A stretch of 64,000 nucleotides of DNA from Botryllus schlosseri (lineage: Eukaryota). Positions 9,937 through 26,389 of the stretch are shown in pieces. A program made the position numbers and the translations under genes. The notes beneath the pieces were generated by a model. That model saw only the letters and a program-made list of their open reading frames with translations. It was not told the origin of the DNA and searched no databases. The stretch's first letter is position 1; each line of letters begins with the position of its first letter. The stretch covers positions 25,484,001-25,548,000 of the forward strand of contig CM119371.1 in NCBI GenBank assembly GCA_051294905.1, written 5' to 3'.

Positions 9937-11706
9937 GGCTAGCTGCTTGACTGTGTGGCCACTGGCCAACGTTGCGTGAATACTCACTAATTCTGCTTGT
10001 CACTAGTGTTTATACTGATCGCTTTTAATGATCACAAAACGAATGGGTAGTTTGTTATGCTCATCCCTTCACCAAGCCAAATTAACAAAGAAGTGCGAGC
10101 CGTTTTCAATTGAATGGTTGTCGGACCATGTGAAAACGGAAGACATAAGTAGGTACGCCCGAAGACCTTTAATTACTATTTAGGAGTCCTATACCTTTTC
10201 CGACACACCTGACTCGATCAGCTCAACCGGTAAATCTGATTACGTGAGCAGAGAGAGCATAAAAATTACTTGCAATATACCGACGCAATCATGAATTATA
10301 TAAATTTTTCGCGCTTCGCGCGTTCAGGCGTCACACCTACCCAACGGACTCCAAATGTAGATGATAAGCAGCGGCCAAAATACACAACCCAAGGGGGGGC
10401 TGGGGGCGAAGCCCCCCGGAAGTTTGATATATCGCCCTATGGGGGGCCTGGTTGCGCACTGTTGTCCAAGGGCCTGCGCAGTGAGTTGGCGTGTTGGCGC
10501 GGACTCGTGAAAAATTAGAGGGACATTCCTTATGTACATGACTGGAGTGTGCTTATGAACATGTACATGGTATCGGTGAAAGTCAATACCTGTGATAAAT
10601 CTAATACCACTAAATATAGTTCTGTTACTTTATTTGGATTTAAACGAGTCTTCTATGTGTAAAAATAACGAGTAGATTGAATTTTTAAACTTTATAGTAC
10701 GACTGAGCCGATTTTCTATCCAGCCACTAGAGCGAAAATGAGATATTTTAGTAAAAATAGCCCCTTGAGTTATCTTCATAACAAGAGGCCATTTAAAAAA
10801 AACAAGGTCGTATTCGAAATCAGTGCCCTTCAGAACCCCCACAACCACTCTTACTTTGTCTACCTAAAAATATGTTTTGACCAGTGTTATCATTTCAACT
10901 ATAACATGCAATTTCAATTGGTAGGTGAAACTGTATTATATAATCATACCAAAGACTTGAATAATAATCCACTTACCGAAAACATGCCTAGGACCGATTC
11001 TTTCCTTGCTCTGCGGAGTAGTATATCCTGAACGCAAATGAAAGGAATCGGCCGGATAATTGTTATTTGTATAAAAAAAAAATCCGTGCTAATGATACAT
11101 GTATCAAAAACAAACGGCGAAATTGGGCATTTCGCCTATTTTCACCAGAGCGTAGGTTGCCAATTTGTTAATAACAGTTGAAGATATGACTTTACTCCCA
11201 TTTCAATGTGCTAACACTAATCAAATGTGGGAATTTTATTGTTAGGGATGGTGAGAACCTCTGAATGGTTCGAGTTCGTGCGAACGCGAACCATTTTGAA
11301 AGGTTCTGTGTGAGCCCGAACGTGAACCTCATGACGTTAGGTGACGTCATATTGCTAATTCCAACCCTATATTTCAGTGAAGTGAGAGCCTATATTAATG
11401 TACACAATACCTAGCGACGAGTAGGGCCACATAATGCCACAATACATAACGTTTTAAACGTCGCCAAATGTATCAACTGGGCAATCAAATGATATAATAA
11501 TCCCATAAAATCAATATCTTCCGTCGCCTTGCCAACAATTTCGACGAGCACTTGCAAGGGAATATAAGCTTACGCCTTAATGGTCTAGGCCAGACCGGAC
11601 AATGTATTTGGCGTCTGAGTAGTGCTGTGTTGCTATTTTGCAGACATCGATGAATTCTTTATATAAATTTCATTGATTGGTTGAATACGTATCATTCACT
11701 GACTAC

Positions 11707-12440
11707 AGTAGTATATAAGAACTAGAGCAGAGGCGGACCAATCAAATCGCAGCATTTGATCACGTGACAATTTTGAATTTCAAATCAAACAGAGAAAAAG
11801 CGCGCGAAAGAGTTATGTCAATACCACTTATATGCGGGACAATGGGTGACAATAACGGGTGCGTGAGGAGAACGAAGCGTGACAGAATAATGGGGGGCGG
11901 TGTGTGCTAGCGACCGTTATGGTATTGCACAATGGGTAATACCCTAGTCTGAACCTAGCGATATTGCACCATACACAGCCTTGATCACGTGACAAGTTTG
12001 CAATGACGCGCGTCTGAATTTACTTGATGATAATGGGAATCTCTCACGTGTGTCAAAATGTATGATTTGTTTGAATTTTAAGGTAATGACGCAGGCGAGA
12101 GCGCTACGTCCAATCAATCGCCTCGGCTCTTAATTAAACAAACGCGTCGCCCACCTGCCGCCGCCCGCCCGTCGCGCTTCATTGAAAAGTAACGTTTATT
12201 GCGTCTTTAGCGCTTCCATGAGAGGACAATGGGTGACAATAGATGAAATGATATGACGTATATAAGAGTATGTTTTCAGGCGCTCCAATCTACGATGGGT
12301 GACAATAGGTGTCAACAATTGACGCGCATCCGAAGAGGTGAAATGTCATTCACGGCAATGTACGTACAATTTACAATGATGCGGGGAATCTGTCACATGT
12401 GTCAAAATGTATGATTTGTTTGAATTTTGAGGTAATGACG
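11707..12440 (+). repeat. Left terminal inverted repeat (~740 bp)
   Basis: Near-identical reverse complement of 24600-25353; internal repeats of AATGGGTGACAATA, CACGTG and TGACGC. Confidence 0.92.
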
Positions 12441-12816
12441 CAGGCGAGAGCGCCAATTCCAATCCATCGCGTCACCTGGTAAAATTTCGTGATATCGTGC
12501 ATTGCCTTTACAAATATGCTATGTCCTTTAAATTGCTATTTATACTTGTAATTACAATAGATGAAAAGATATGACGTATATAAGAGTATGTTTTCATGCG
12601 CTTCAATCTACAATGGGTGACAATAGGTGTCAACACTTGACGCGCGTCCGAAGAGGTGAAATGTCATTCACGGTAATGTATGTACAATTTACTTAATGAT
12701 GCTGGGAATCTCTCACGTGTGTCAAAATGTATGAGTTGTTTGAATTTTGAGGTAATGACGCAAGCGAGAGCGCTAAGTCCAACCAATCGCGTCACCTATT
12801 ATTAAAACAAACGCAT

Positions 12817-13300
12817 CTAATTATTATTTATAAATAATTTGAAGACGGACCGCCCATCGCGCGTAAGATACTTTAGATCAGACATGGAAAAATCCCCAAC
12901 AACAACAACATATACTGAAGATAACACTCGGAAGAGAGAGAGGAAAAGAGGGTGAATGCTCTTGAGGTATATTCTACCCCTGGCTTATTCCGAGTGAAAT
13001 AAGTTTGTATTACGTTAACGGAATCTATGTTCGAAAAGTTTAACTAATTATTATTTATAAATAATTTGAAGACGGACCGCCCACCGCGCGTAAAATACTT
13101 TAGATTAGACATGAAAAAAAAACCAACAACAACAACATATACTAAAGATAACACTCGGAAGAGAGAGAGAGGAAAAGAGGGTGAATGCTTTTGAGGTATA
13201 TCCTACATCTGGCCTATTCCGAGTGAAACAAGTTTGTATTACGTTAACGGAATCTATTTTCGAAAGTTTAACTAATTGTAATTTATAAATAATTTGAAGA
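12817..13300 (+). repeat. ~227-bp tandem duplication
   Basis: ctaattattatttataaataatttgaagacggaccgccc at 12817 and 13044, with the start of a third copy near 13272. Confidence 0.85.
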
Positions 13301-14678
13301 CAAACTGTTTTTGATATTGCAAAATTTTGTGATATCATGTGTTGCTTCTACAAATATGCGATGTCTTTTAAATTGTTGCGAATTAGATGAAGATACATTA
13401 AACTCGTTGTATAATGCTCTCCAAAATCATGAGGTGAACCATTTGGTCTACATCTGTTCCGTTTTATAACAGCTGATGTAATCGGTAACATAGTGTGTGC
13501 TAGTTTTAATCATACTCAAGCATGGCATGTCATTTACCGATCGAATTTATCATCAATAAAGTATTCTTGATCACGTTTACTGATTATATATCTGTGCTTA
13601 TGAGGAAGAGGGTTTCCATCGCTCATTCATTCATTCTAATGGTAGTTCCCGCAGTTTCTCCATTATCCTATTGACGTTTATTAGCATATACCACTTTCGA
13701 GATCACGTACCGAAATTGACAAAATTGTTCGGTCGTTAACAATTATTTCTATGACTAATTTTATTACAACCTTATGGTGGTTTTCAGTCTCTAAAATGGT
13801 TCTATGCCAATTCCGAGAAGAACATTACCGAGAATTTCAGTATAGAGAATGGACACCTGAATGAAGGAGACAAGAAAACTTTATGGAAACAATTGCATTC
13901 GTCCTGTAAAACGTTATTTTCGGAATAAATATGTATCTACACATGATAATTTAGTGTTCTTATTCATTCACTTTATAATGCTTGTCGTGATCGCCATGGA
14001 CCGATAAGAAAGTAGGTAGGTACATAGGACAATAACTCAACGCAGGTTGAAGTCAATTTGCTCACTTGAATGCATAGATGTTTAGAATCTTCGAGAAATT
14101 ATTCCCTCAAATAGTAACAGCATATCCAGAATTTAGATTTGTGTCATAAACACAGTATTTAATCTTGTGGGGTTGATTTTACCGGTTGGGTTGCTGTAAT
14201 TTATATGACGACAGTGAGGAGTAAGTACGAATTTAGACTGCTTTTTAGTGTTTAGCCAAAACTAGGCCTTGAACACTTAGTGTTTACGCATTCGGAAAAC
14301 GCTACTTATTGTACTTGAGTAAAACGTCCTATATCATGATAGTGAAAGTACTTTTTCAATGGTCTTGATGAAAGGTAGGAGTTCAATCAAAATTCTACAA
14401 TGCATTTTCGTGATGCTGAATGAATCATCACGACGATAACATAGCAAAATAAATCAATTGATTTATGAAGTAGCACTATGGGATATTACCGTTATAAAAA
14501 ATTACCTTTCGACATGACTTATTCCGTTGTCAGAAATTGTAGTGTCAATATATTTCCAATGTTTGGTACTGCTACGCGTATTTACTCATATCATGCCTAC
14601 AAGCATTCTACGCATTTTATCTTATGTCGATGGGCTTCGTATCATTACGGATATGCAGGGCATATAGTATTGTGAATC

Positions 14679-17019
14679 TATTAGTCCAAATTTCCCACTT
14701 AGGTGAAGCAGCGCATGACTTCTGGTTATAAACAGTTAATAACATCCGGACATGCGTAATTGATATGTAAAATACTATTTACCACACGTGAAACTCAATT
14801 CCCTTCTAAAGTTATCTAAGTTATTAAATGTCACCCAACCTCAGCACTACGTCTGTCGCGGACGAGGTCGCGTCGTATAATACCACTAGAAATCCATCTA
14901 GTTTGGTTGTCTAGAGGTATATTTGTACATACTTTTATTTTCAAACGCTGATAGAAAATATTATTTGTATAGTGTGTGGAACTGGATTCATTTTCATAGT
15001 TATAATCCGATATGATATAAAAGTAATACCAGTCACAAAACATCTGATATTAGAAACGGTCGTCATAGCACATTGTCTCAATTGAAAATAATATAGTTGT
15101 AGATTTTGAAAATTCAGTAGTTCTGATCCTAGCTCTAGTTGAGCATTCGAAAAAATACTAGCTGTCGGAAAACTAGAAAACACATGTCGTCGTTTTTCGT
15201 GACTCGAGATACCGCCGTTCCGTTAAATGACGTCCGGGCAGTCGATTCTAGTCAGAGTCATCAGCGGTATAGCGGTCGGGTGGGTTTATTTGGGGTTGGA
15301 ATATCTCCTATTTCAAACTCGAAATCCCTTACTTTCGAAATGTAGATTCTATATCTGATATTTACGATATAATAAAAGTTAAGGTGTTGCGTAAGAGAAT
15401 GAAATCCATTTGAGTACGGTTCTTAACCTTTAATGACTTCGGAACCGCTGCTACAGAGGTGAAATTAAATTTTCTGAGAATGAGAAGCAAGAAATGAGTT
15501 CGCACTGTTTGTACTGTTATTATGCGATGTATTAATTTCCAATAATTTCTAAATTGAAAGCACTGGATTACGTCGGTAACACAAGCTTTTGAGTGGATGT
15601 GTCATTATTAGCCAATTAGAAAGTTGGGGTTGATGATCAAGAAAGGAGTGAGTAGTTCAATAAGTCCTGCATGTCTCTGAATTGAGTGAGTTATTATCAA
15701 TTCGAAGAGCTAATAAAATTTATTAGTCCAAATTTCCCACTTAAGTGAAGCACCGCATGACTTCTAGCTATAAACAGTTAATAACATTCGGACATGCGTA
15801 ATTGATATGTAAAATACTATTTAGCACACGTGAAACTCAATTCCCTTCTAAATTTATCTAAGTTATCAAATTTCACCCAACCTCAGCACTACGTCTGTCG
15901 CGGACGAGGTCGTGTCGTATAATACCACTAGAAATCCATCTAGTTTGGTTGTCTAGAGGTACATTTGTACATACTTTTATTTTCAAACGCTGATAGAAAA
16001 TATTATTTGTACAGTGTGTGAAACTGGATTCATTTTCATAGTTATAATCCGATATGATGAAAAAGTAATACCAGTCACAAAACATCTGATATTAGAAACA
16101 ATCGTCATAGCACATTGTCTCAATTGAAAATAATATAGTTGTAGATTTTGAAAATTCAGTAGTTCTGATCCGAGTTCTAGTTGCTCATTCGAAAAAATAC
16201 TAGCTGTCGGAAAACTGGAAAACACATGTTGCCGTTTTTCGTGAATCGAGATACCGCCGTTCCGTTAAATGACGTCCGGGCAGTCGATTCTAGTAAGAGT
16301 CATCAGCGGTATAGCCGTCGGGTGGGTTTATTTGTGGTTGGAATATCTCCTATTTCAAACTCGAAATCCCTTACTTTCGAAATGTAGATTCTATATCTGA
16401 TATTTACAATATAATAAAAGTTAAGGTGTTGCGTAAGAGAATGAAATCCATTTGAGTACGGTTCTTAACCTTTATTGACTTCGGAACCGCTGCTACAGAG
16501 GTGAAATTAAATTTTCTGAGAATGAGAAGCAAGAAAAGAGTTCGCACTGTTAGTACTGTTATTATGCGATGTATTAATTTCCAATAAGTTTTAAATTGAA
16601 AGCACTGGATTACGTCGGTAACACAAGCTTTTGAGTGGATGTGTCATTATTAGCCAATTAGAAAGTTGGGGTTGATGATCAAGAAATGAGTAGGACATGC
16701 GTAATTGATATGTAAAATACTATTTAGCACACGTGAAACTCAATTCCCTTCTAAATTTATCTATGTTATTAAATGTCACCCAACCTCAGCACTACGTCTG
16801 TCGCGGACGAGGTCATGTCGTACAATACCACTAGAAATCCATATAGCTTGGTTGTCTAGAGGTACCTTTGTACATACTATTATTTGCAAACACTGATAGA
16901 AAATATTATTTGTAGTGTGTGAAACTGGATTCATTTTTCATAGTTATAATCCGATATGATGAAAAAGTAATACCAGTCGCAAAACATCTGATATTAGAAA
17001 CAATCGTCATAGCACATTG
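14679..17019 (+). repeat. 1042-bp tandem repeat (two copies plus a partial third)
   Basis: tattagtccaaatttcccactt at 14679 and 15721; duplicated short ORFs in the track are offset by 1042; partial copy at 16693-17019. Confidence 0.92.
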
Positions 17020-17173
17020 AACAAATTTCACCGCCGCTGAGGTTTATTATCTCGGTTTGTTGGAACTACAATTGAACAGCGGCTGTAAGCTACCAGTAAA
17101 ACAAGAGTTATTGCTATCCTCACAGGAGCTATTACACGATCTGCATGGAAATTCGTTTGATATCCATGTTTAT

Positions 17174-17846
17174 TAGGGCTCTTCAAAAATGACTTTTTTT
17201 CTTCTCAAATCATACTGGTTACTTGATATTATTGTTAGGTTACCAAATTCAAGCCTTCACACCAAATTTGGTTCAATTCCAACCAGTAGCCGCATTGCTA
17301 CAGGAGAAGAAAGTTTTTATTTATTATACAGAAAGAAGTAGCAAAAAATTTGAAAATTTATTGTTCACCCCTTGAAAGTGTTAAGTTGTCTATAGAAACG
17401 ATGTTCACCAAATTTGGTTCAATTCCAATCAGCGGAAGCGGAGATATTGCAGTGGAAAAATTTGGATTATGAATAAAATTTTATTTACGGTGAGCAGTTG
17501 TCTGATTTTTATTATAGTGGTACCCACCGTAAATACTATTTTATTCAAATCCAAATTTTTCGATGGTAATAGCTCCGCTCCCACTGGTTGTATTGAACCA
17601 AATTTGGTGAACATCGTTTCTATAGACAGCCTAACACTTCCATGGGGTGAACAGAAAATTTTCAAATTTTATTTTGCTATTTCTTTTTATATATTAAATA
17701 GAAACTTTTTTCTCCTGTAGCAATGCGGCTACTGGTTGGAATTGAATCAAATTTGGTGTGTAGGCATAAATTAGGTAACCTAACAATAATATCAAGCGGC
17801 CAGTACGATTTGAGAAGAATAAAAAGTCATTTTTTGAAGACCCCTA
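17174..17846. mobile_element. Foldback-like hAT MITE (TAGGG termini) inside the Polinton-like element
   Basis: Whole element is nearly palindromic; TSD ATGTTTAT/ATGTATAT (7/8). Related to 38751-39257. Confidence 0.85.
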
Positions 17847-18699
17847 ATGTATATACACCTCTATGCCTCTGTATTTGTTAGTGGCGATTGTGATTGGACT
17901 CTCCGATGCGACGGTTAATAACATCGACAATGAGGTAGTGGGCAAACTTTATTGTCAAGGCAATCTTATAAAATTACCCTCCGCCTGAAGTTTAAATGAG
18001 ATCTCAGCAGGTCAGTTATGTGGTAACAGAGGTAATAGCTGACAATTGAAAACCTCACACGGAATCAGAGAAAGTTTTATTCCTGCCTGCGATAAAATTG
18101 TAAAAAAAAAATGTTTGCTAAGAATTGAAAACGATCCCCATGTCAAATGATACCAATCGTAGACGTATTTGCGTCATGTCCGCAGAGATAAAAGAAAACT
18201 TAATTTCTTCTTTGAAGCAGAGAAAAGCCTAGTTGAGTGCTCCGGAAAGGTAGAAGTACTTCGTCATTGAGAACCTATGTAAGACTGTGGTTGCTGCTGT
18301 GCGCATTCTGGTAGTTAGCCTTTGGCGTAAGCCAAAATAGTTCAGAACCACTGTGCTAGTGTGCCGCGAACTATTTTTCATTTTCAAAGTGTTCCGCGAG
18401 GTCAAAGAGGTTGAGAACCACTGCTGTAATTTATATGACGACAGTGAGGAGTAGCTACGAATTTAGACTACCTTTTTAGTGTTTAGCCAAAACTAGACCT
18501 GAAGCACCTACTGTTTACGCATTCGGAAATCGCTACTTGTTGTACTTGAGTAAAATCTCCCATGCCATGATAGTAAAAGTACTTTTTCAATGGTCTCGAT
18601 GAAAGGGAGGAGTTCAATCAAAATTCTACAATGCATTTTCGTGATGATGAATGAATTATCACGACGATGACAGAGCAAAATAAATCAATGATATTAAAG

Positions 18700-19308
18700 T
18701 TATAAAATTAGCCTCGACAAATGCATATCCGAATGGTGTTGGAAGTTACTCCTATCGACAATTTTCTTTCCGCAAATGGCACATTTATATAGGAGAGCGC
18801 TATGCCTATCGATGTGTCGTTTATAGGCATCCTTTCCCATATATTCTTTCTCACAAATTTCGCATGCAATCTTTTCCATGTCGCCATGTAACTTCATATG
18901 TCGTGTCGAGGACCATTTCCATGAAAATGCTTTACCACAAATTTCGCATTCACACTCTTCCACCCTGATATGGACATTCATATGACGAGTCAATAAACCC
19001 TTCCATCGGAATGCTCTTTCACAGATTTCGCATGCAATCTTTTCCATTTCGCCATGTAACTTCATATGTCGTGTCAAGGACCATTTCCATGAAAATGCTT
19101 TACCACAAATTTCGCATTCACACTCTTCAACCCTGATATGGACATTCATATGACGAGCCAATAAACCTTTCCATCGGAATGCTCTATCACAGATTTAACA
19201 CTTATGCTTCAGCCCCGAATGTAAATTGGAATTATTGATGTAGTAAATCTTCGGACAAAAGTATCTTCCCCAATCAGCTGGATGAGTCAACTTACTCTGT
19301 GTACCCAT
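18700..19308 (-). pseudogene. Intronless six-finger C2H2 zinc-finger gene with one in-frame stop
   Basis: ATG at 19308 reads MGTQSKL...KHKC*ICDRAFRWKGLLARHMNVH. TAA at 19195-19197 sits where fingers 2-5 have E in CEIC. Five more CX2C-X12-HX3H fingers run to the stop at 18700. Fingers 1-2 and 3-4 are a 168-bp duplication. Confidence 0.85.
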
Positions 19309-19350
19309 AAGAATCCTCCGGTTACTTCTTAAAAAAGTAAAATCTAGAGA

Positions 19351-22300
19351 AACGGTTGAGTTTAGTATGCAGTGCTTTGACGTGACTGTGAAGTACTGAA
19401 TTAACTACAAACAATCGACTCGAAGAGTTACATCATATGCGCACATTACAAAATTTACTTCAGTACTCCTGAAAGTAGAATTACTTTGTTCCTGATTATA
19501 TTTGTGTGGTTCGATGATATGAAAATCTATCAACGATTTCGACAAATATTACAATCCATTGTCTGCAACTAGAACTACTTGACTAAGTCGCAACTATAAC
19601 TATAACTAAAATTACTCACTTTCTAAAATACCCAACTAGAACTAGAACTTGAATTAGAACTTGAAATCCTAACCTTTTTAAACTCGATTGAACTAGAATT
19701 AAAACTAGAACTACTCACTAATTACAAAAGAGGATCGATATTATTTTGGTACATCAACTCTAGCTGCTCGGACGTCATTCAACAGAACAGCAGTATCTTG
19801 AGTCACGAAAAACGACGGCACGTGTATTTTAGTTGTTCGAAAACTAATTTTTTTTCGAATGTGCATCTAGAACTAGGACCAGAAATACTCATTTTTCAAA
19901 ATTCGCAACCAGAGCTATAGAAGAGGCTGAAAAAAACGTTAGTTGATCATTTTATCACTTAAACAAGTGAATTTATCATATATTTCCTTTACTTGCAGTA
20001 ACGGAATGCACTTTATTTCTCGTGGATTTTACAGGAGTTCTTGTGTCCTATTTCTATTACTACTTCGATTTTCTAGAACAAAGCGACACTGATATAGTGG
20101 TTAAAATTAATAGAAACTAATACCGACTTTTGATTAAAATCTTTTTGCGATATATGATCCGTCAGCTCGTTTCGAACTTGGAAGTTTACGTAAATTTCTG
20201 CACCCCTTTATCCGACATAGTCAATGCGTTGATGGTGTGATATCATATTGACGGACAATGGCTTCATAACTCATGGGGAATTTCGCTTATTGAGGATGAT
20301 CAGCTGATAACACAAACGCTGAAAATTCACTAGTATGAAAATTTATGAGTGATCACTAGCAATAAGTATAGGTTTAAGCTTCGAGATCACACGAAACACA
20401 TTTTGTATCCTGATTTTATTAGCTCTTCGAATTGATAATAACTCACTCAATTCAGAGACATGTAGGACTTATTGAACTACTCACTCATTTCTTGATCATC
20501 AACCCCAACTATCTAATTGGATAATAATGACACATCCACTCAAAAGCTTGTGTTATCGACGTAATCCAGTGCTTTCAATTTAGAAATTAATGGAAATTAA
20601 TGCATCGCATAATAACAGAACAAACAGTGCGAACTCATTTGTTGCTTCTCATTCTCAGAAAATTTAATTTCACCTCTGTAGCAGCGGTTCCGAAGTCATT
20701 AAAGGTTACGAACCGTTCTCAAATCGATTTCATTCTCCTAGGCAACACCGTAACTTTTATTATATCGTAAATATCAGATATAGAATCTATATTTCGAAAG
20801 TAAGGGATTTCGAGTTTGAAATAGGAGATATTCCAACCCCAAATAAACCCACCCGAAGGCTAAACCGCTGATGACTCTGACTAGAATCGACTGCCCGGAC
20901 ATCATTTAACGGAACGGCGGTATCTCGATTCACGAAAAACGGCGACATGTGTTTTCTAGTTTTCCCACAGCTAGTATTTTTTCGAATGCGCAACTAGAAC
21001 TAGGATCAGAACTACTGAATTTTCAAAATCTGCAACTATAATATATTCAATTGAGACAATGTGATATGACGATTGTTTCTAATATCAGATGTTTTGCAAC
21101 TAATATTACTTTTTCTTCATATCGGATTATAACTATGAAAATGAATCCAGTTTCACACACTACAAATAATATTTTCTATCAGCGTTTGAAAATAATAGTA
21201 TGTACAAATGTACCTCTAGACAACCAAGCTAATATGGATTTCTAGTGGTATTATACGACATGACCTCGTCCGCGACAGACGTATTGCTGAGGTTGGGTGA
21301 AATTTAATAACTTAGATAACTTTAGTAGGGAATTGAGTTTCACGTGTGGTAAATAGTATTTTACATATTAACTACGCATTTCCGAATGTTATTAACTGTT
21401 TATAACCAGAAGTCATGCGGTGCTGCACTTAAGTGGGAAATTTGGACTAATAAATTCACAATGCTATATGCCCTGCATATCCGTAATGATACGAAGCCCA
21501 TCGACATAAGATAAAATGCGTAGAATGCTTGTAGGCATGATATGAGTAAATACGCGTTGCAGCACCAAACATTGGAAATATATTGACAAACAATTTCTGA
21601 GAACGGAAAATGTCATGTCGAAGGGTAATTTTTATAACGGTATTATGCCATAGTGCTACTTCATAAATTCAATGATTTATTTTGCTATGTCATCGTCGTG
21701 ATAATTCATTCAGCATCACGAAAATGCATTGTAGAATTTTGATTGAACTCCTACCTTTCATCAAGACCATTGAAAAAGTACTTTCACTATCATGATATAG
21801 GACATTTTACTCGAGTGCAATAAGTAGCGATTTCCGAATGCGTAAACAATAAGTGTTCCAGGCCTAGTTTTGGCTAAACACTAAAAAGCAGTCTAAATTC
21901 GTAGTTACTCCTCACTGCCGTCATATAAAACGGTTGAGTTTAGTATGCAGTTCTTTGACGTGACTGTCAAGTACTGAATAAACTACAAACAATCGACTCG
22001 AAGAGTTACAACATATGCACACATTACAAAATTTAGTCCAATACTCCTGAAAGTAGAAGTACTTTGTTACTGATTAGATTTGTATGGTTCGATGATATGA
22101 AAATCTATCAACGATTTCGACAAATATTACAATCCATTGTCCGCAACTAGAACTACTTAACTAAGTCGCAACTATAACTATAACTAAAACTAATCACTTT
22201 CTAAAATACCCAACTAGAACTAGAACTTGAATTAGAACTTGAAATCCTGACTTTTTAAACTCGACTAAACTAGAATTAAACCTAGAACTACTCACTAATT

Positions 22301-24506
22301 ACATAAAAGGATCGATATTATTTTGGTACATCAACTCTAGCTTCTCGGACATCATTTAACAGAACAGCAGTATCTTGAGTCACGAAAAAACGACGACACG
22401 TGTATTTTAGTTGTTCGACAACTAATATTTTTTCGAATGTGCAACTGGAACTAGGACCGGAACTACTCACTTTTCAAAATTCGCAACCAAAACTGTAGAA
22501 GTGGTCGAAAAAAACCGTTAGTTGATCATTTTTATCACTTAAATAAGTGAATTTATCATATATTTCCTTTACTTGCGGTAACGGAATGCACTTTATTTCT
22601 CGTGGATTTCACAGGAGTTCTTTTGTCCTATTTCTATTACTATTTCGATTTTCTAGAACAAAGCGACATTGATAGTGGTTAAATTAATAGAAACTAATAC
22701 CGACTTTTGATTAAAATCTCTTTGCGATATATGATCCATCAGCTCGTTTCGAACTTGGAAGTTTACGTAAATTTCTGCACCCCTTTATCCGACATAGTCA
22801 ATGCGTTGGTGGTATGATATCATACTGACGGACAATAGTTTCATAACTCATGGGGAATTTCGCTTATTGAGGATGATCAGCTGATAACACAAACGCGGAA
22901 AATTTACTAGTATGAAAATTTATGAGTAATCACTAGCAATAAGTATGGGTTTAAGCTTCGAGATCACACGAAACACATTTGTATCCTGATTTTATTAGCT
23001 CTTCGAACTGATAATAACTCACTCAATTCAGAGACATGCAGGACTTGTTGAAGTACTCACTCATTTCTTGATCATCAACCCCAACTTTCTAATTGGCTAA
23101 TAATGACACATCCACTCAAAAGCTTGTGTTACCGACGTAATCCAGTGCTTTCAATTTAAAAATTATTGGAAATTAATACATCGCATAATAACAGTACAAA
23201 CAGTGCGAACTCATTTCTTGCTTCTCATTCTCAGAAAATTTAATTTCACCTCTGTAGCAGCGGTTCCGAAGTCATTAAAGGTTAAGAACCGTACTCAAAT
23301 GGATTTCATTCTCTTACGCAACACCTTAACTTTTATTATATCGTAAATATCAGATATAGAATCTACATTTCGAAAGTAAGGGATTTCGAGTTTGAAATAG
23401 GAGATATTCCAACCACAAATAAATCCACCCGACGGCTATACCGCTGATGACTCTTACTAGAATCGACTGCCCGGACGTCATTTAACAGAACGGCGGTATC
23501 TCGATTCACGAAAAACGGCAACATGTGTTTTCCAGTTTTCCGACAGCTAGTATTTTTTCGAATGAGCAACTAGAACTAGGATCAGAACTACTGAATTTTC
23601 AAAATCTACAACTATATTATTTTCAATTGAGACAATGTGCTATGACGATTGTTTCTAATATCAGATGTTTTGTGACTGGTATTACTTTTTCATCATATCG
23701 GATTATAACTATGAAAATGAATCCAGTTTCACACACTGTACAAATAATATTTTCTATCAGCGTTTGAAAATAAAAGTATGTACAAATGTACCTCTAGACA
23801 ACCAAACTAGATGGATTTCTAGTGGTATTATACGACACGACCTCGTCCGCGACAGACGTAGTGCTGAGGTTGGGTGACATTTAATAACATAGAATACTTT
23901 AGTAGGGAATTGAGTTTCACGTGTGGTAAATAGTATTTTAAATATCAATTACGCATGTCCGAATGTTATTAACTGTTTATAACCAGAAGTCATGCGCTGC
24001 TTCACCTAAGTGGGAAATTTGGACTAATAGATTCACAATACTATATGCCCTGCATATCAGTAATGATACGAAGCCCATCGACATAAGATAAAATGCGTAG
24101 AATGCTTGTAGGCATGATATGAGTAAATACGCGTAGCAGCATCAAACATTGGAAATATATTGACACTACAATTTCTGACAACGGAAAAAGTCATGTCGAA
24201 AGGTAATTTTTTATAACGGTTATATCCCATAGTGCTACTTCATAAATCAATTGATTTATTTTGCTATGTTATCGTCGTGATAATTCATTCACCATCACGA
24301 AAATGCATTGTAGAATTTTGATTGAACTACCTTTCATCAAGACCATTGAAAAAATACTTTCACTATCATGATATAGGACGTTTTACTCAAGTACAATAAG
24401 TAGCGTTTTCCGAATGCGTAAACAGTAAGTGTTCAAGGTCTAGTTTTGGCTAAACACTGAAAAGCAGTCTAAATTCGTACTTACTCCTCACTGTCGTCAT
24501 ATAAAT
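19351..24506 (+). repeat. 2578-bp direct tandem duplication
   Basis: aacggttgagtttagtatgcag at 19351 and 21929, colinear to the end of each unit. The distal ~1.6 kb of the unit is the reverse complement of 14108-15718. Confidence 0.92.
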
Positions 24507-24599
24507 TACAGCAATCCAACCGGTAAAATCAACCCCAATAGATGAAATACTGTGTTTATGGCACAAATCTAAATTCTGGATATGCTGTTACTATTTGAC

Positions 24600-25353
24600 G
24601 TCATTATCTCAAAATTCAAACAAATCATACATTTTGACACATGTGACAGATTCCCCGCATCATTGTAAATTGTACATACATTACCGTGAATGACATTTCA
24701 CCTCTTCGGACGCGCGTCAATTGTTGACACCTATTGTCACCCATTATAGATTGGAGCGCCTGAAAACATACTCTTATATACGTCATATCATTTCATCTAT
24801 TGTCACCCATTGTCCTCTCATGGAAGCGCTAGAGACGCAATAAACGTTACTTTTCAATGAAGCGCGACGGGCGGGCGGCGGCGGGCGGCGGCGGGCGGGC
24901 GGCGGCGGGCGAGCGACGCGTTTGTTTAATTAAGAGCATAGGCGATTGATTGGACGTAGCGCTCTCGCCTGCGTCATTACCTTAAAATTCAAACAAATCA
25001 TACTTTTTGACACACGTGAGAGATTCCCACTATCACCAAGTAAATTCAGACGCGCGTCATTGCAAACTTGTCACGTGATCAAGGCTGAGTATGGTGCAAT
25101 ATCGCTAGGTTCAGACTAGGGTATTACCCATTGTGCAATACCATAAAGGTCGCTAGCACACACAGCCCATTATGCTGTCACGCTTCGTTCTCCTCACGCA
25201 CCCGTTATTGTCACCCATTGTCCCGCATATAAGTGGTATTGACATAACTCTTTCGCGCGCTTTTTCTCTGTTTGATTTGAAATTCAAAATTGTCACGTGA
25301 TCAAATGCTGCGATTTGATTGGGCTGCCTCTGCTTTAGCTCCCATATACTACT
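24600..25353 (-). repeat. Right terminal inverted repeat
   Basis: Mirror of 11707-12440; carries a longer GGCGGGCGGC tract at ~24870-24910. Confidence 0.92.
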
Positions 25354-26389
25354 GAAGACATACATGTAGAGTAAGTCGCTCTAGATCAGGGGTGGGCAAA
25401 CTTTTCAGCTCGCAGGCCGCATTCAACATCTGAATCCATTCGCGGGCCGCATTAGGGTATAATCGAAATTATAAGTGAAGACGCAAACTTTTGTTTGATT
25501 TTATAGTAACTATGGAGACGTGGAAATAATACATATTTAAGGACTAAAACAATACAACCATTGATTTGATGATAACGCACATGCGTCAGAAACATTAACG
25601 AGATTTTATGACCTGGCCATCTTCAATTAATTCGTCAAAATTAGGAATGGAAGTAGGTTGTGCCGATTCTTGGGACAAGATGGAAATTTGAATATGTGAG
25701 AAGCGATCAGCTCACATATGTGCTGATTCTGAGTTTGGTCAAGCTTCAGACCGCCCAACGCTGACATCATCATAACCAGCATGATTCATTTAAATACGTT
25801 TTAACAAATGAGTTCTTAACATTGTTTTGTGGGGACGACATCAACATAATTTACTGTTGTCTCAAAACTTTTTAATAATTCGGTTGATTTATTTCAGACC
25901 GCACACATTTCATGTGATACAATGGGCCTACCATCAGTATGTTCCGATTCGAGTGATGTTTCAAATTGCTGCAACGAATTCATTACAATAATGTCATATT
26001 GTGACAAGTAATTCGTCTTGCGTTACCTCCGACATCGAAACAGAAATACCTTTCAGTTAATTCGTTACTGATAGCAAAGAATTCAACTTCAACTTTTCGC
26101 TTTTTGTATTCGCTTTTTGTATTGATTTAGACAACCCATTATAAACAAATTGAGGACCGAGTTACAAACAATTTGCTCCTAACTGCGCATAAAGAGAACG
26201 AATCACGCACGCACGAAATGATTTTCCCAAATACAGCACTGAAAGTTGGCGTTCGAACCCTATATCACAATTGCTATCCGAACTAATTATTTCCATTTTG
26301 CGTTTCTCAGATGTTCAGGAACTGGTCGGGCTACTCCGCCAACCATAAATTCAAAATATAAAATATTATGATTATAATTTAATCTATAT

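Follow-up and report, generated by a model that had tools for sequence, protein, structure and literature searches.

We examined a 64,000-nucleotide stretch of the Botryllus schlosseri genome (assembly GCA_051294905.1, contig CM119371.1, positions 25,484,001 to 25,548,000 of the forward strand), referred to here as the window, in which a first-pass annotation had noted an element with the ends of a Polinton. The element occupies window positions 11707-25353 and is 13,647 bp long. Our analyses indicate that it is probably a non-autonomous, gene-less derivative of a local Polinton/Maverick lineage and that it is now a relic. Its ends are homologous to those of resident elements that contain Polinton genes, it entered a single site within one copy of an interspersed repeat, and no Polinton gene was recognized in its interior. 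The sole other full copy in the genome was produced by duplication of the surrounding chromosomal segment and not by independent transposition.

Insertion site, ends and resident Polintons

Evidence that the element was inserted as one unit comes from its flanks. These belong to an interspersed repeat, termed repeat A here, which in two intact copies that were read runs ...CTGACTAC followed directly by CTACATGTAG. This uninterrupted junction was found at 1,220 places genome-wide when up to two mismatches were allowed, and a reversed control gave 0. In the window, repeat A ends with ...CTGACTAC, after which come the element, the six bases GAAGAC, and then ATACATGTAG. The features of the insertion site, including the terminal inverted repeats (TIRs) and the two copies of the putative target-site duplication (TSD), are as follows.

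11243-11706 (+): copy of interspersed repeat A, the insertion target (2,483 genome candidates, 87-88% identity)
11701-11706 (+): left TSD copy GACTAC, the last six bases of the left part of repeat A
11707-12440 (+): left TIR, starting (AGT)2 ATAT; 11707-11854 (to ~12004 in some relatives) is homologous to the TIRs of autonomous Polintons
24599-25353 (-): right TIR, terminating ATAT(ACT)2
25354-25359 (+): six extra bases GAAGAC, a degenerate right TSD copy that matches GACTAC at four of six positions
25360-25369 (+): remaining end of repeat A, ATACATGTAG, which continues from the exact point at which the left flank ended
25379-26110 (+): unrelated interspersed repeat B in the right flank (1,517 candidates, with matches that begin at query base 23-34)

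Because a single copy of repeat A is split with exactly six extra bases, two independent ends are ruled out. The first-pass annotation had named this as a way in which its interpretation could fail, and the flanks instead rejoin as one repeat A copy. Six extra bases at a single break appear, from the sequence, to be the footprint expected of Polinton-type integration.

The element starts with AGTAGTATAT (also given as AGTAGTATATAAG) at 11707 and ends with ATATACTACT (also given as CCCATATACTACT) at 25353. The end motif (AGT)2...(ACT)2 is present, together with outer TIRs of 734 bp (11707-12440) and 755 bp (25353-24599) that are 93.3% identical over 758 aligned columns. These measurements confirm the termini, the TIRs of ~740 bp and the length of 13.6 kb that had been reported, and also the match of the hexamers GACTAC and GAAGAC at only four of six positions.

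A search of the source genome (495 Mb) with the TIR matched 33 ends. Four of them belong to the element and its paralog and one is a solo end on contig C9; another 24 form 12 convergent pairs that span 17-30 kb, and four are unpaired. The paired ends are 84-90% identical to the element across its first 148 bp, and for bases 135-298 the figure is 76-82%; taken across the first 150-300 bp, the match to the 12 pairs is 78-90%. The first 11 bases were identical in all 29 ends that were read, except for a change of the first base in the C9 end. Across all 29 aligned ends, those of gene-less elements included, positions 1-12 and ~34-149 are invariant or nearly so, and positions 13-33 vary. Part of the conserved block, the 13-mer ATGGGTGACAATA, is present in seven copies in the window (0.12 expected by chance), all of them in the arms of the element and in mirror orientation. 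Both the conserved end block and this 13-mer could serve as binding sites for an integrase or for replication proteins.

Perfect 6-bp TSDs were found at eight of the nine pairs with both flanks. A gene for the protein-primed DNA polymerase pPolB (93-100% identity) lies within 10 of the 12 pairs, in frameshifted form within an eleventh (on C2), and also beside two of the four unpaired ends. Whether the TIR is ever linked to Polinton genes had been a question for the first-pass annotation, and the presence of pPolB within 11 of the 12 pairs answers it in favor of linkage. The closest relative of the ends is a 22-kb pair on C5 (C5:28064198-28086266), in which pPolB is at 93% identity and has one in-frame stop. 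The TIR of the C10 copy is 181 bp long and 99.4% identical. One other right end in the genome reads (ACT)3 and has a different subterminal sequence; genome searches with the TIR and the interior of the element returned no match there. Judged by these alignments, the ends of the element are of Polinton type and homologous to those of the local autonomous Polintons, and the element shares them with elements that encode the transposition machinery, as is expected of a non-autonomous derivative. A hAT-like reading, with CAG...CTG ends and an 8-bp TSD, was rejected, as the flanks mismatch at 8 bp and the ends align base-for-base with Polinton ends.

Four of the autonomous elements, each ~19 kb in length, were read (on C10, C13, C2 and on C1 at 7.9 Mb), and all four carry the same ten open reading frames (ORFs). 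The 1,288-residue ORF (P0001) has 814 homologs, and PF03175 (protein-primed family B polymerase) is present in 96 of the 120 that were listed, with which the Atlas agrees; on this homology the ORF is identified as pPolB. Pfam and PHROGs searches with the 1,288-residue ORF gave no polymerase match, and a PDB sequence search with it returned nothing useful. The 19-kb elements also encode an integrase with rve and chromo domains. A 431-residue ORF is a probable double-jelly-roll capsid protein, to be taken as a lead only: its Pfam capsid match (E 0.03) is below the cut-off, and in the corresponding Atlas clusters 14-24% of the members have the domain. For a 179-residue ORF the similarity to an adenain-like viral protease was weak (E 0.039), and PDB sequence searches with the 270-, 307- and 536-residue Polinton ORFs found nothing.

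All four 19-kb copies were also found to carry a UQ_con ubiquitin-conjugating E2 ORF (L031:1540-2058, +; E 5.5e-47) and a Peptidase_C14 caspase-domain ORF (L031:2750-3523, -; E 1.4e-12), with the same ORFs in L033, L038 and L040. These two ORFs are 98-99% conserved between the 19-kb copies and look like host-type cell-death or ubiquitin cargo. P0001 itself (L032:361-4227, -) contains one C2H2 finger, located at residues 297-319 (its Pfam E value of 0.026 is below the cut-off), and an endonuclease-like insert at about residues 790-872 (phrog_13076, E 0.003); PF00096 is also present in many of its homologs. The Polinton polymerases of the genome fall into at least three clades, at 93-100%, 67% and 62% identity to P0001 (36 scored of 357 candidates), and most of the listed polymerase copies have open frames of ~1,290-1,310 codons.

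Gene content and internal structure

Nine stop-to-stop ORFs of at least 80 residues overlap window positions 11000-26000, the longest having 164 residues (18700-19194, -). Pfam identified this ORF as zf-C2H2 (E 1.3e-24), the sole recognizable domain in the element, and none of 57 other element ORFs of at least 55 residues had a Pfam match at E <= 0.01. With pPolB (P0001) and all ORFs of at least 100 residues from a 19-kb Polinton as queries, tblastn detected no remnant in 11707-25353; one frame over the TIR itself was spurious. The tblastn and Pfam searches identified no polymerase, rve integrase, capsid, packaging ATPase or protease in the element, and it has no tRNA genes or Rfam families. 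The earlier description of the element as having no virus-like genes, and no long ORF except a C2H2 gene, was borne out by these searches.

The inverted symmetry of the element runs far deeper than 740 bp, and symmetry beyond the TIRs had not been mentioned by the first-pass annotation. Window positions 14107-15719 mirror 24598-22989 at 96.9% identity over 1,613 columns, and inverted self-matches of 100 bp or more account for 66% of the element's bases; 69% lie in direct self-matches, most of them tandem. The right arm is unbroken from 22989 to 25353 (2.36 kb). Its mirror on the left consists of 11707-12440 and 14107-15719, split by 1.67 kb (12441-14106) that has no counterpart in the right arm. 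Each of the two 2.58-kb units on the right comprises ~1.06 kb with no mirror partner and a mirror copy of the left inner arm. The inner arms (about 97-98%) are closer to each other than are the outer TIRs (93%), and in the simpler paralog the arms are ~1.7 kb long. The center of the element (17020-19350) contains a 680-bp palindromic MITE (miniature inverted-repeat transposable element) and the zinc-finger ORF. The internal features are listed below.

12441-14106 (+): stretch found in the left arm only, comprising subterminal tandem repeats and a family X TIR fragment
12441-13375 (+): subterminal tandem repeats, with units of ~320 and ~227 bp, partly common to the C9 solo end
13376-14103 (+): fragment of the long TIR of family X, an unrelated family (0.73 kb, 72-77% identity)
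14107-17019 (+): left inner arm, of which 14107-15719 mirrors 22989-24598
14675-15649, 15717-16691 and 16693-17019 (+): ~1-kb tandem unit in 2.3 copies (direct identity 96.3% and 93-95%)
17172-17848 (no strand given): nested palindromic MITE-like repeat of ~680 bp (5,090 genome candidates at 85-89%, on both strands)
18700-19194 (-): C2H2 zinc-finger ORF of 164 codons, stop to stop, in the central loop
19350-21929 and 21928-24505 (+): two 2.58-kb tandem units, 94% alike
near 20500-21040 (no strand given): nested repeat of ~540 bp (1,261 genome candidates at 70-75% identity)
22989-24598 (-): right inner arm, contiguous with the right TIR and mirror of 14107-15719

Family X occurs as inverted pairs 5-9 kb apart on many contigs, and one such pair is 6.5 kb from the C10 Polinton. 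It was considered as the source of the inner arms and rejected, as its match is confined to 13376-14103. Single DNA contigs of run X1 skip 328, 79 and 260 bases of the window sequence at 17879-18208, 19611-19691 and 20747-21008, respectively (depth 5-10); these skips could reflect alleles, the paralog or other repeat copies.

The zinc-finger ORF has no initiator methionine, either in the element or in the paralog. In the window, a 168-bp tandem duplication (18851-19196) adds two fingers to it. The ORF of the paralog has 145 codons and enters a further finger that is cut by a stop, and the window ORF has lost that truncated finger through a 2,083-bp deletion relative to the paralog, with a breakpoint at 18719. 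The best other match in the genome is 42-44% identical and lies amid hundreds of C2H2 ORFs, which amounts to generic C2H2 similarity. The paralog and window ORFs differ by five synonymous and five non-synonymous codon changes in 104 codons, too few to judge selection. Three RNA runs that carry the same species label were sampled to 6-13% each; on 17850-21900 they yielded 0, 3 (partial, on repeats) and 0 reads, which speaks neither for nor against expression. The first-pass annotation regarded the ORF as cargo, a status that is not supported for an ORF with no start codon, a truncated finger and no paralog more than 44% identical; a gene fragment of 4-6 fingers in the loop, and not demonstrated cargo, is the better description. 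Contig C1 holds about 130 of the 150 matches listed for the C2H2 ORF, many of them in open frames of 300-1,000 codons, and seems to contain large zinc-finger gene clusters.

Copies and origin of the element

The sole other full copy of the element lies 260 kb away (C1:25755017-25765718) and is 10,702 bp long. Window positions 7765-52857 are collinear, at 95-99% identity, with C1:25744279-25795810 around the second copy, and the right junctions are the same. As the flanks are collinear over at least 45 kb and the junction is shared, we conclude that the second copy is a passive paralog made by segmental duplication and not an independent transposition, and the shared flanks mean that the element was already in place before the segment of at least 45 kb was duplicated. 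The identity of the segmental duplication is 95-97% near the element and 98-99% from ~30,900 rightwards, a step that suggests two ages or gene conversion. The search for other gene-less copies with a zinc-finger ORF, proposed earlier, yielded one such copy, but that copy is the paralog, and the hexamer to its right matches GACTAC at three of six positions. The differences in length between the window element and the paralog are as follows.

Right tandem unit: +2,578 bp
Left tandem units: +1,945 bp
Subterminal unit: +331 bp
Two zinc fingers: +168 bp
Deletion: -2,083 bp

The tandem units are 94-96% alike, about as similar as the paralogs are to each other (95-97%). They are therefore about as old as the segmental duplication, and they either arose in the chromosome or cannot be ordered relative to it. 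The suggestion that the element had kept near-full Polinton length by internal duplication was not supported, given that the paralog is 10.7 kb long, the local autonomous elements are ~19 kb long, and the tandem units are about the age of the segmental duplication.

Elsewhere in the genome this subtype of end was found in two places only, the 22-kb element on C5 and the solo end on C9. The C9 end (C9:25157064, L007) has the terminal 148 bp in common with the element, along with private subterminal repeats of the element's left arm that are missing from the autonomous elements, and breaks off after ~1.6 kb. From this shared sequence, the gene-less lineage appears to have inserted at least twice. 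The genome search with the TIR gave no sign of amplification of this lineage, and several independent full insertions with their own TSDs were not found in the genome, which contains one locus, its paralog and the truncated C9 solo end. The first-pass description of a non-autonomous derivative mobilized in trans consequently stands with respect to the Polinton ends, the absence of genes and the single insertion with a 6-bp footprint, and does not stand with respect to repeated mobilization, the only other full copy being the paralog.

The sequence of events that we favor begins with an element that kept the ends presumably required in cis, namely the (AGT)2 terminus, the conserved subterminal block of ~115 bp and the repeated 13-mer, around DNA that is unrelated to the autonomous elements and largely mirror-symmetric. 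This element integrated once, as a unit, into a copy of repeat A. We infer that a Polinton-type rve integrase was supplied in trans, leaving a 6-bp TSD that is now degenerate. The insertion is likely older than the present 19-kb Polintons because the arms are 93% alike, as compared to 99.4% in a 19-kb copy. The element would then have evolved as ordinary chromosomal DNA, gaining the MITE and other repeat fragments, undergoing tandem duplications and losing 2.1 kb, before it was copied passively with its flanks by the segmental duplication of at least 45 kb.

Several observations weigh against this history. The TSD is imperfect, at four of six positions in the window, and the right copy in the paralog, GAGGTC, matches at three of six. 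The paralogs differ at three of seven bases at the junction (window 25354-25360, L004:2260-2266) though their flanks are ~95% alike, a localized clustering of changes. To the left of the paralog, 5.3 kb of other sequence (C1:25749676-25755016) takes the place of window 11594-11706; this insert includes an inverted, 77%-identical copy of repeat A, and we interpret the change as a later rearrangement because the flank in the window completes repeat A. Beyond ~300 bp the arms have no match to either end of any autonomous element that was read, which leaves a Polinton ancestry of the interior hypothetical. The flanks of the C5 pair, the closest relative of the ends, match at two of six positions, with no matching TSD. 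Integration of a full element is documented once, mobilization in trans being drawn from that single event and the solo end. Lastly, the long-range structure rests on one assembly, and the DNA contigs with which it was compared are short (the longest listed is 478 bp) and perhaps from the same sample.

The deep mirror symmetry would also be explained if the element were an integrated copy-back (snap-back) defective Polinton genome, in which a template switch during protein-primed strand-displacement replication mirrored one viral end around a loop. This would be a special case of the derivation proposed above, in which the element is a satellite-like fossil that was made extrachromosomally and integrated by the integrase of a helper. 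Defective adenovirus genomes can carry large inverted duplications; a literature search found nothing on copy-back genomes of protein-primed replicons. Inverted self-matches over 66% of the bases, a right arm that is continuous for 2.36 kb and arms of ~1.7 kb in the paralog are all consistent with such an origin. However, duplication of one viral end cannot be shown when the arms beyond ~300 bp match no autonomous end that was read, and 1.67 kb of the left arm only and ~1.06 kb of each right unit are without mirror partners. Ordinary recombination or gene conversion can also produce long TIRs, and inner arms that are 97-98% alike between outer TIRs at 93% point to later chromosomal conversion. 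We consider a copy-back origin unlikely. If it were true, the Polintons of this genome might shed defective-interfering-type genomes into the germ line, perhaps with a limit on their size.

It is also conceivable that a once-autonomous Polinton inserted complete and lost its genes in place by deletion and replacement. Polinton-type ends with a 6-bp footprint fit any Polinton insertion, and the paralogs differ by indels of +2.58 kb, +1.9 kb and -2.08 kb, which shows that large changes did occur after insertion. What makes this route decidedly improbable, in our view, is that there is no protein-level trace of the ten Polinton ORFs though the arms are only ~7% diverged. Gene removal would have to have been complete, and to have been followed by replacement with more than 10 kb of unrelated, mirror-symmetric DNA. 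In addition, the private subterminal repeats are also present at the solo end on C9, which places the origin of the arm structure before at least one other insertion.

We are more doubtful still of a functional "Pack-Polinton", in which a host zinc-finger gene was captured and then spread or expressed. In its favor, both paralogs have an uninterrupted ORF (164 and 145 codons) whose shared part retains every zinc ligand, and five synonymous and five non-synonymous differences would be compatible with mild constraint. Those ten differences are too few for a test of selection, however, and the ORF has no start codon and its last finger is truncated, through a stop in the paralog and through a deletion in the window. 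No parent gene could be identified, the best other match being at 42-44%, and the two carriers represent one duplicated locus and not independent insertions. An artefact would mean either that two solo ends of unrelated origin lie opposite each other by chance or that repeats were mis-assembled, and in its favor the hexamers differ at two of six positions. We give it very little credence given that the flanks fit as one repeat copy with exactly six extra bases, that the overall architecture is found again, at 95-97% identity, in the paralog 260 kb away, and that the repeated units are 3-6% diverged and are thus not collapsed or duplicated identical reads.

Relation to known mobile elements

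Barreat and Katzourakis (2021, PMC8097293) describe Mavericks with the (AGT)2//(ACT)2 motif and 6-bp TSDs, whose TIRs measure 46-1,447 bp and whose full lengths are 12.7-24.6 kb, and the motif with 6-bp TSDs is the commonest Maverick end type in vertebrates. The element described here resembles Polintons/Mavericks in having the same end motif, TIRs, a 6-bp footprint, though an imperfectly duplicated one, and a first 150-300 bp that is homologous to the local copies. It differs from the local Polintons in its unrelated interior and in its arms, which are 0.74 kb long (effectively 1.7-2.4 kb) as compared to 181 bp in the C10 copy. Polintons by definition encode pDNAP and the RVE integrase, according to PMC5499653, and under the definition as given there the element is not a Polinton.

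Reports of non-autonomous relatives are few among the sources that we found. PMC3014272 remarks that a lizard apparently has no non-autonomous copies of Polintons. In butterflies, the Pannagram preprint (10.1101/2025.02.07.637071) describes Polinton-related insertions that lack polB and are still mobile, with TIRs of ~2 kb. The element shares with these derivatives, as they are described there, the Polinton TIRs and the missing polymerase. The butterfly derivatives keep other Polinton genes, are polymorphic and are present in many copies, whereas the element in the window has neither Polinton genes nor signs of recent movement. Our search of the literature on non-autonomous or derived Polintons and Mavericks, which left Repbase and the founding 2006 paper outside its scope, turned up no account of an element with Polinton ends and no genes at all. 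The literature consulted also included PMC4028283 and 10.1101/2024.01.15.575659.

With respect to the zinc-finger fragment, Pack-MULEs and gene-carrying Helitrons offer a precedent: gene captures by these elements are nearly always fragments (PMC6431247). They too are non-autonomous DNA elements that hold a host-type gene fragment. The element in the window differs from them in that it has no identifiable parent gene and no independent capture copies, and in its transposition machinery.

The internal structure recalls a further group. Foldback (FB-type) transposons have long inverted arms with subterminal tandem repeats around a loop and no coding capacity. The likeness is one of architecture only, in the 66% of bases in inverted matches and the subterminal tandem repeats of the arms. 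What sets the element apart from Foldback elements is that its termini, together with its first 150-300 bp, are of the kind found in the local Polintons and that its footprint is 6 bp.

A single old relic says little on its own about ongoing mobilization or gene transport. The value of this element lies in part in the approach that it illustrates: the ends of a gene-less element can be tied to autonomous relatives, a single insertion can be proved from the "empty site" that an interspersed repeat provides, and a second copy can be a passive duplicate and not the product of transposition. Approximately 150 bp of end sequence, including the 13-mer, has been kept between gene-less and autonomous elements in this genome. 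Polintons are usually catalogued by their genes, and derivatives that consist of ends only are invisible to gene-based searches and have barely been described.

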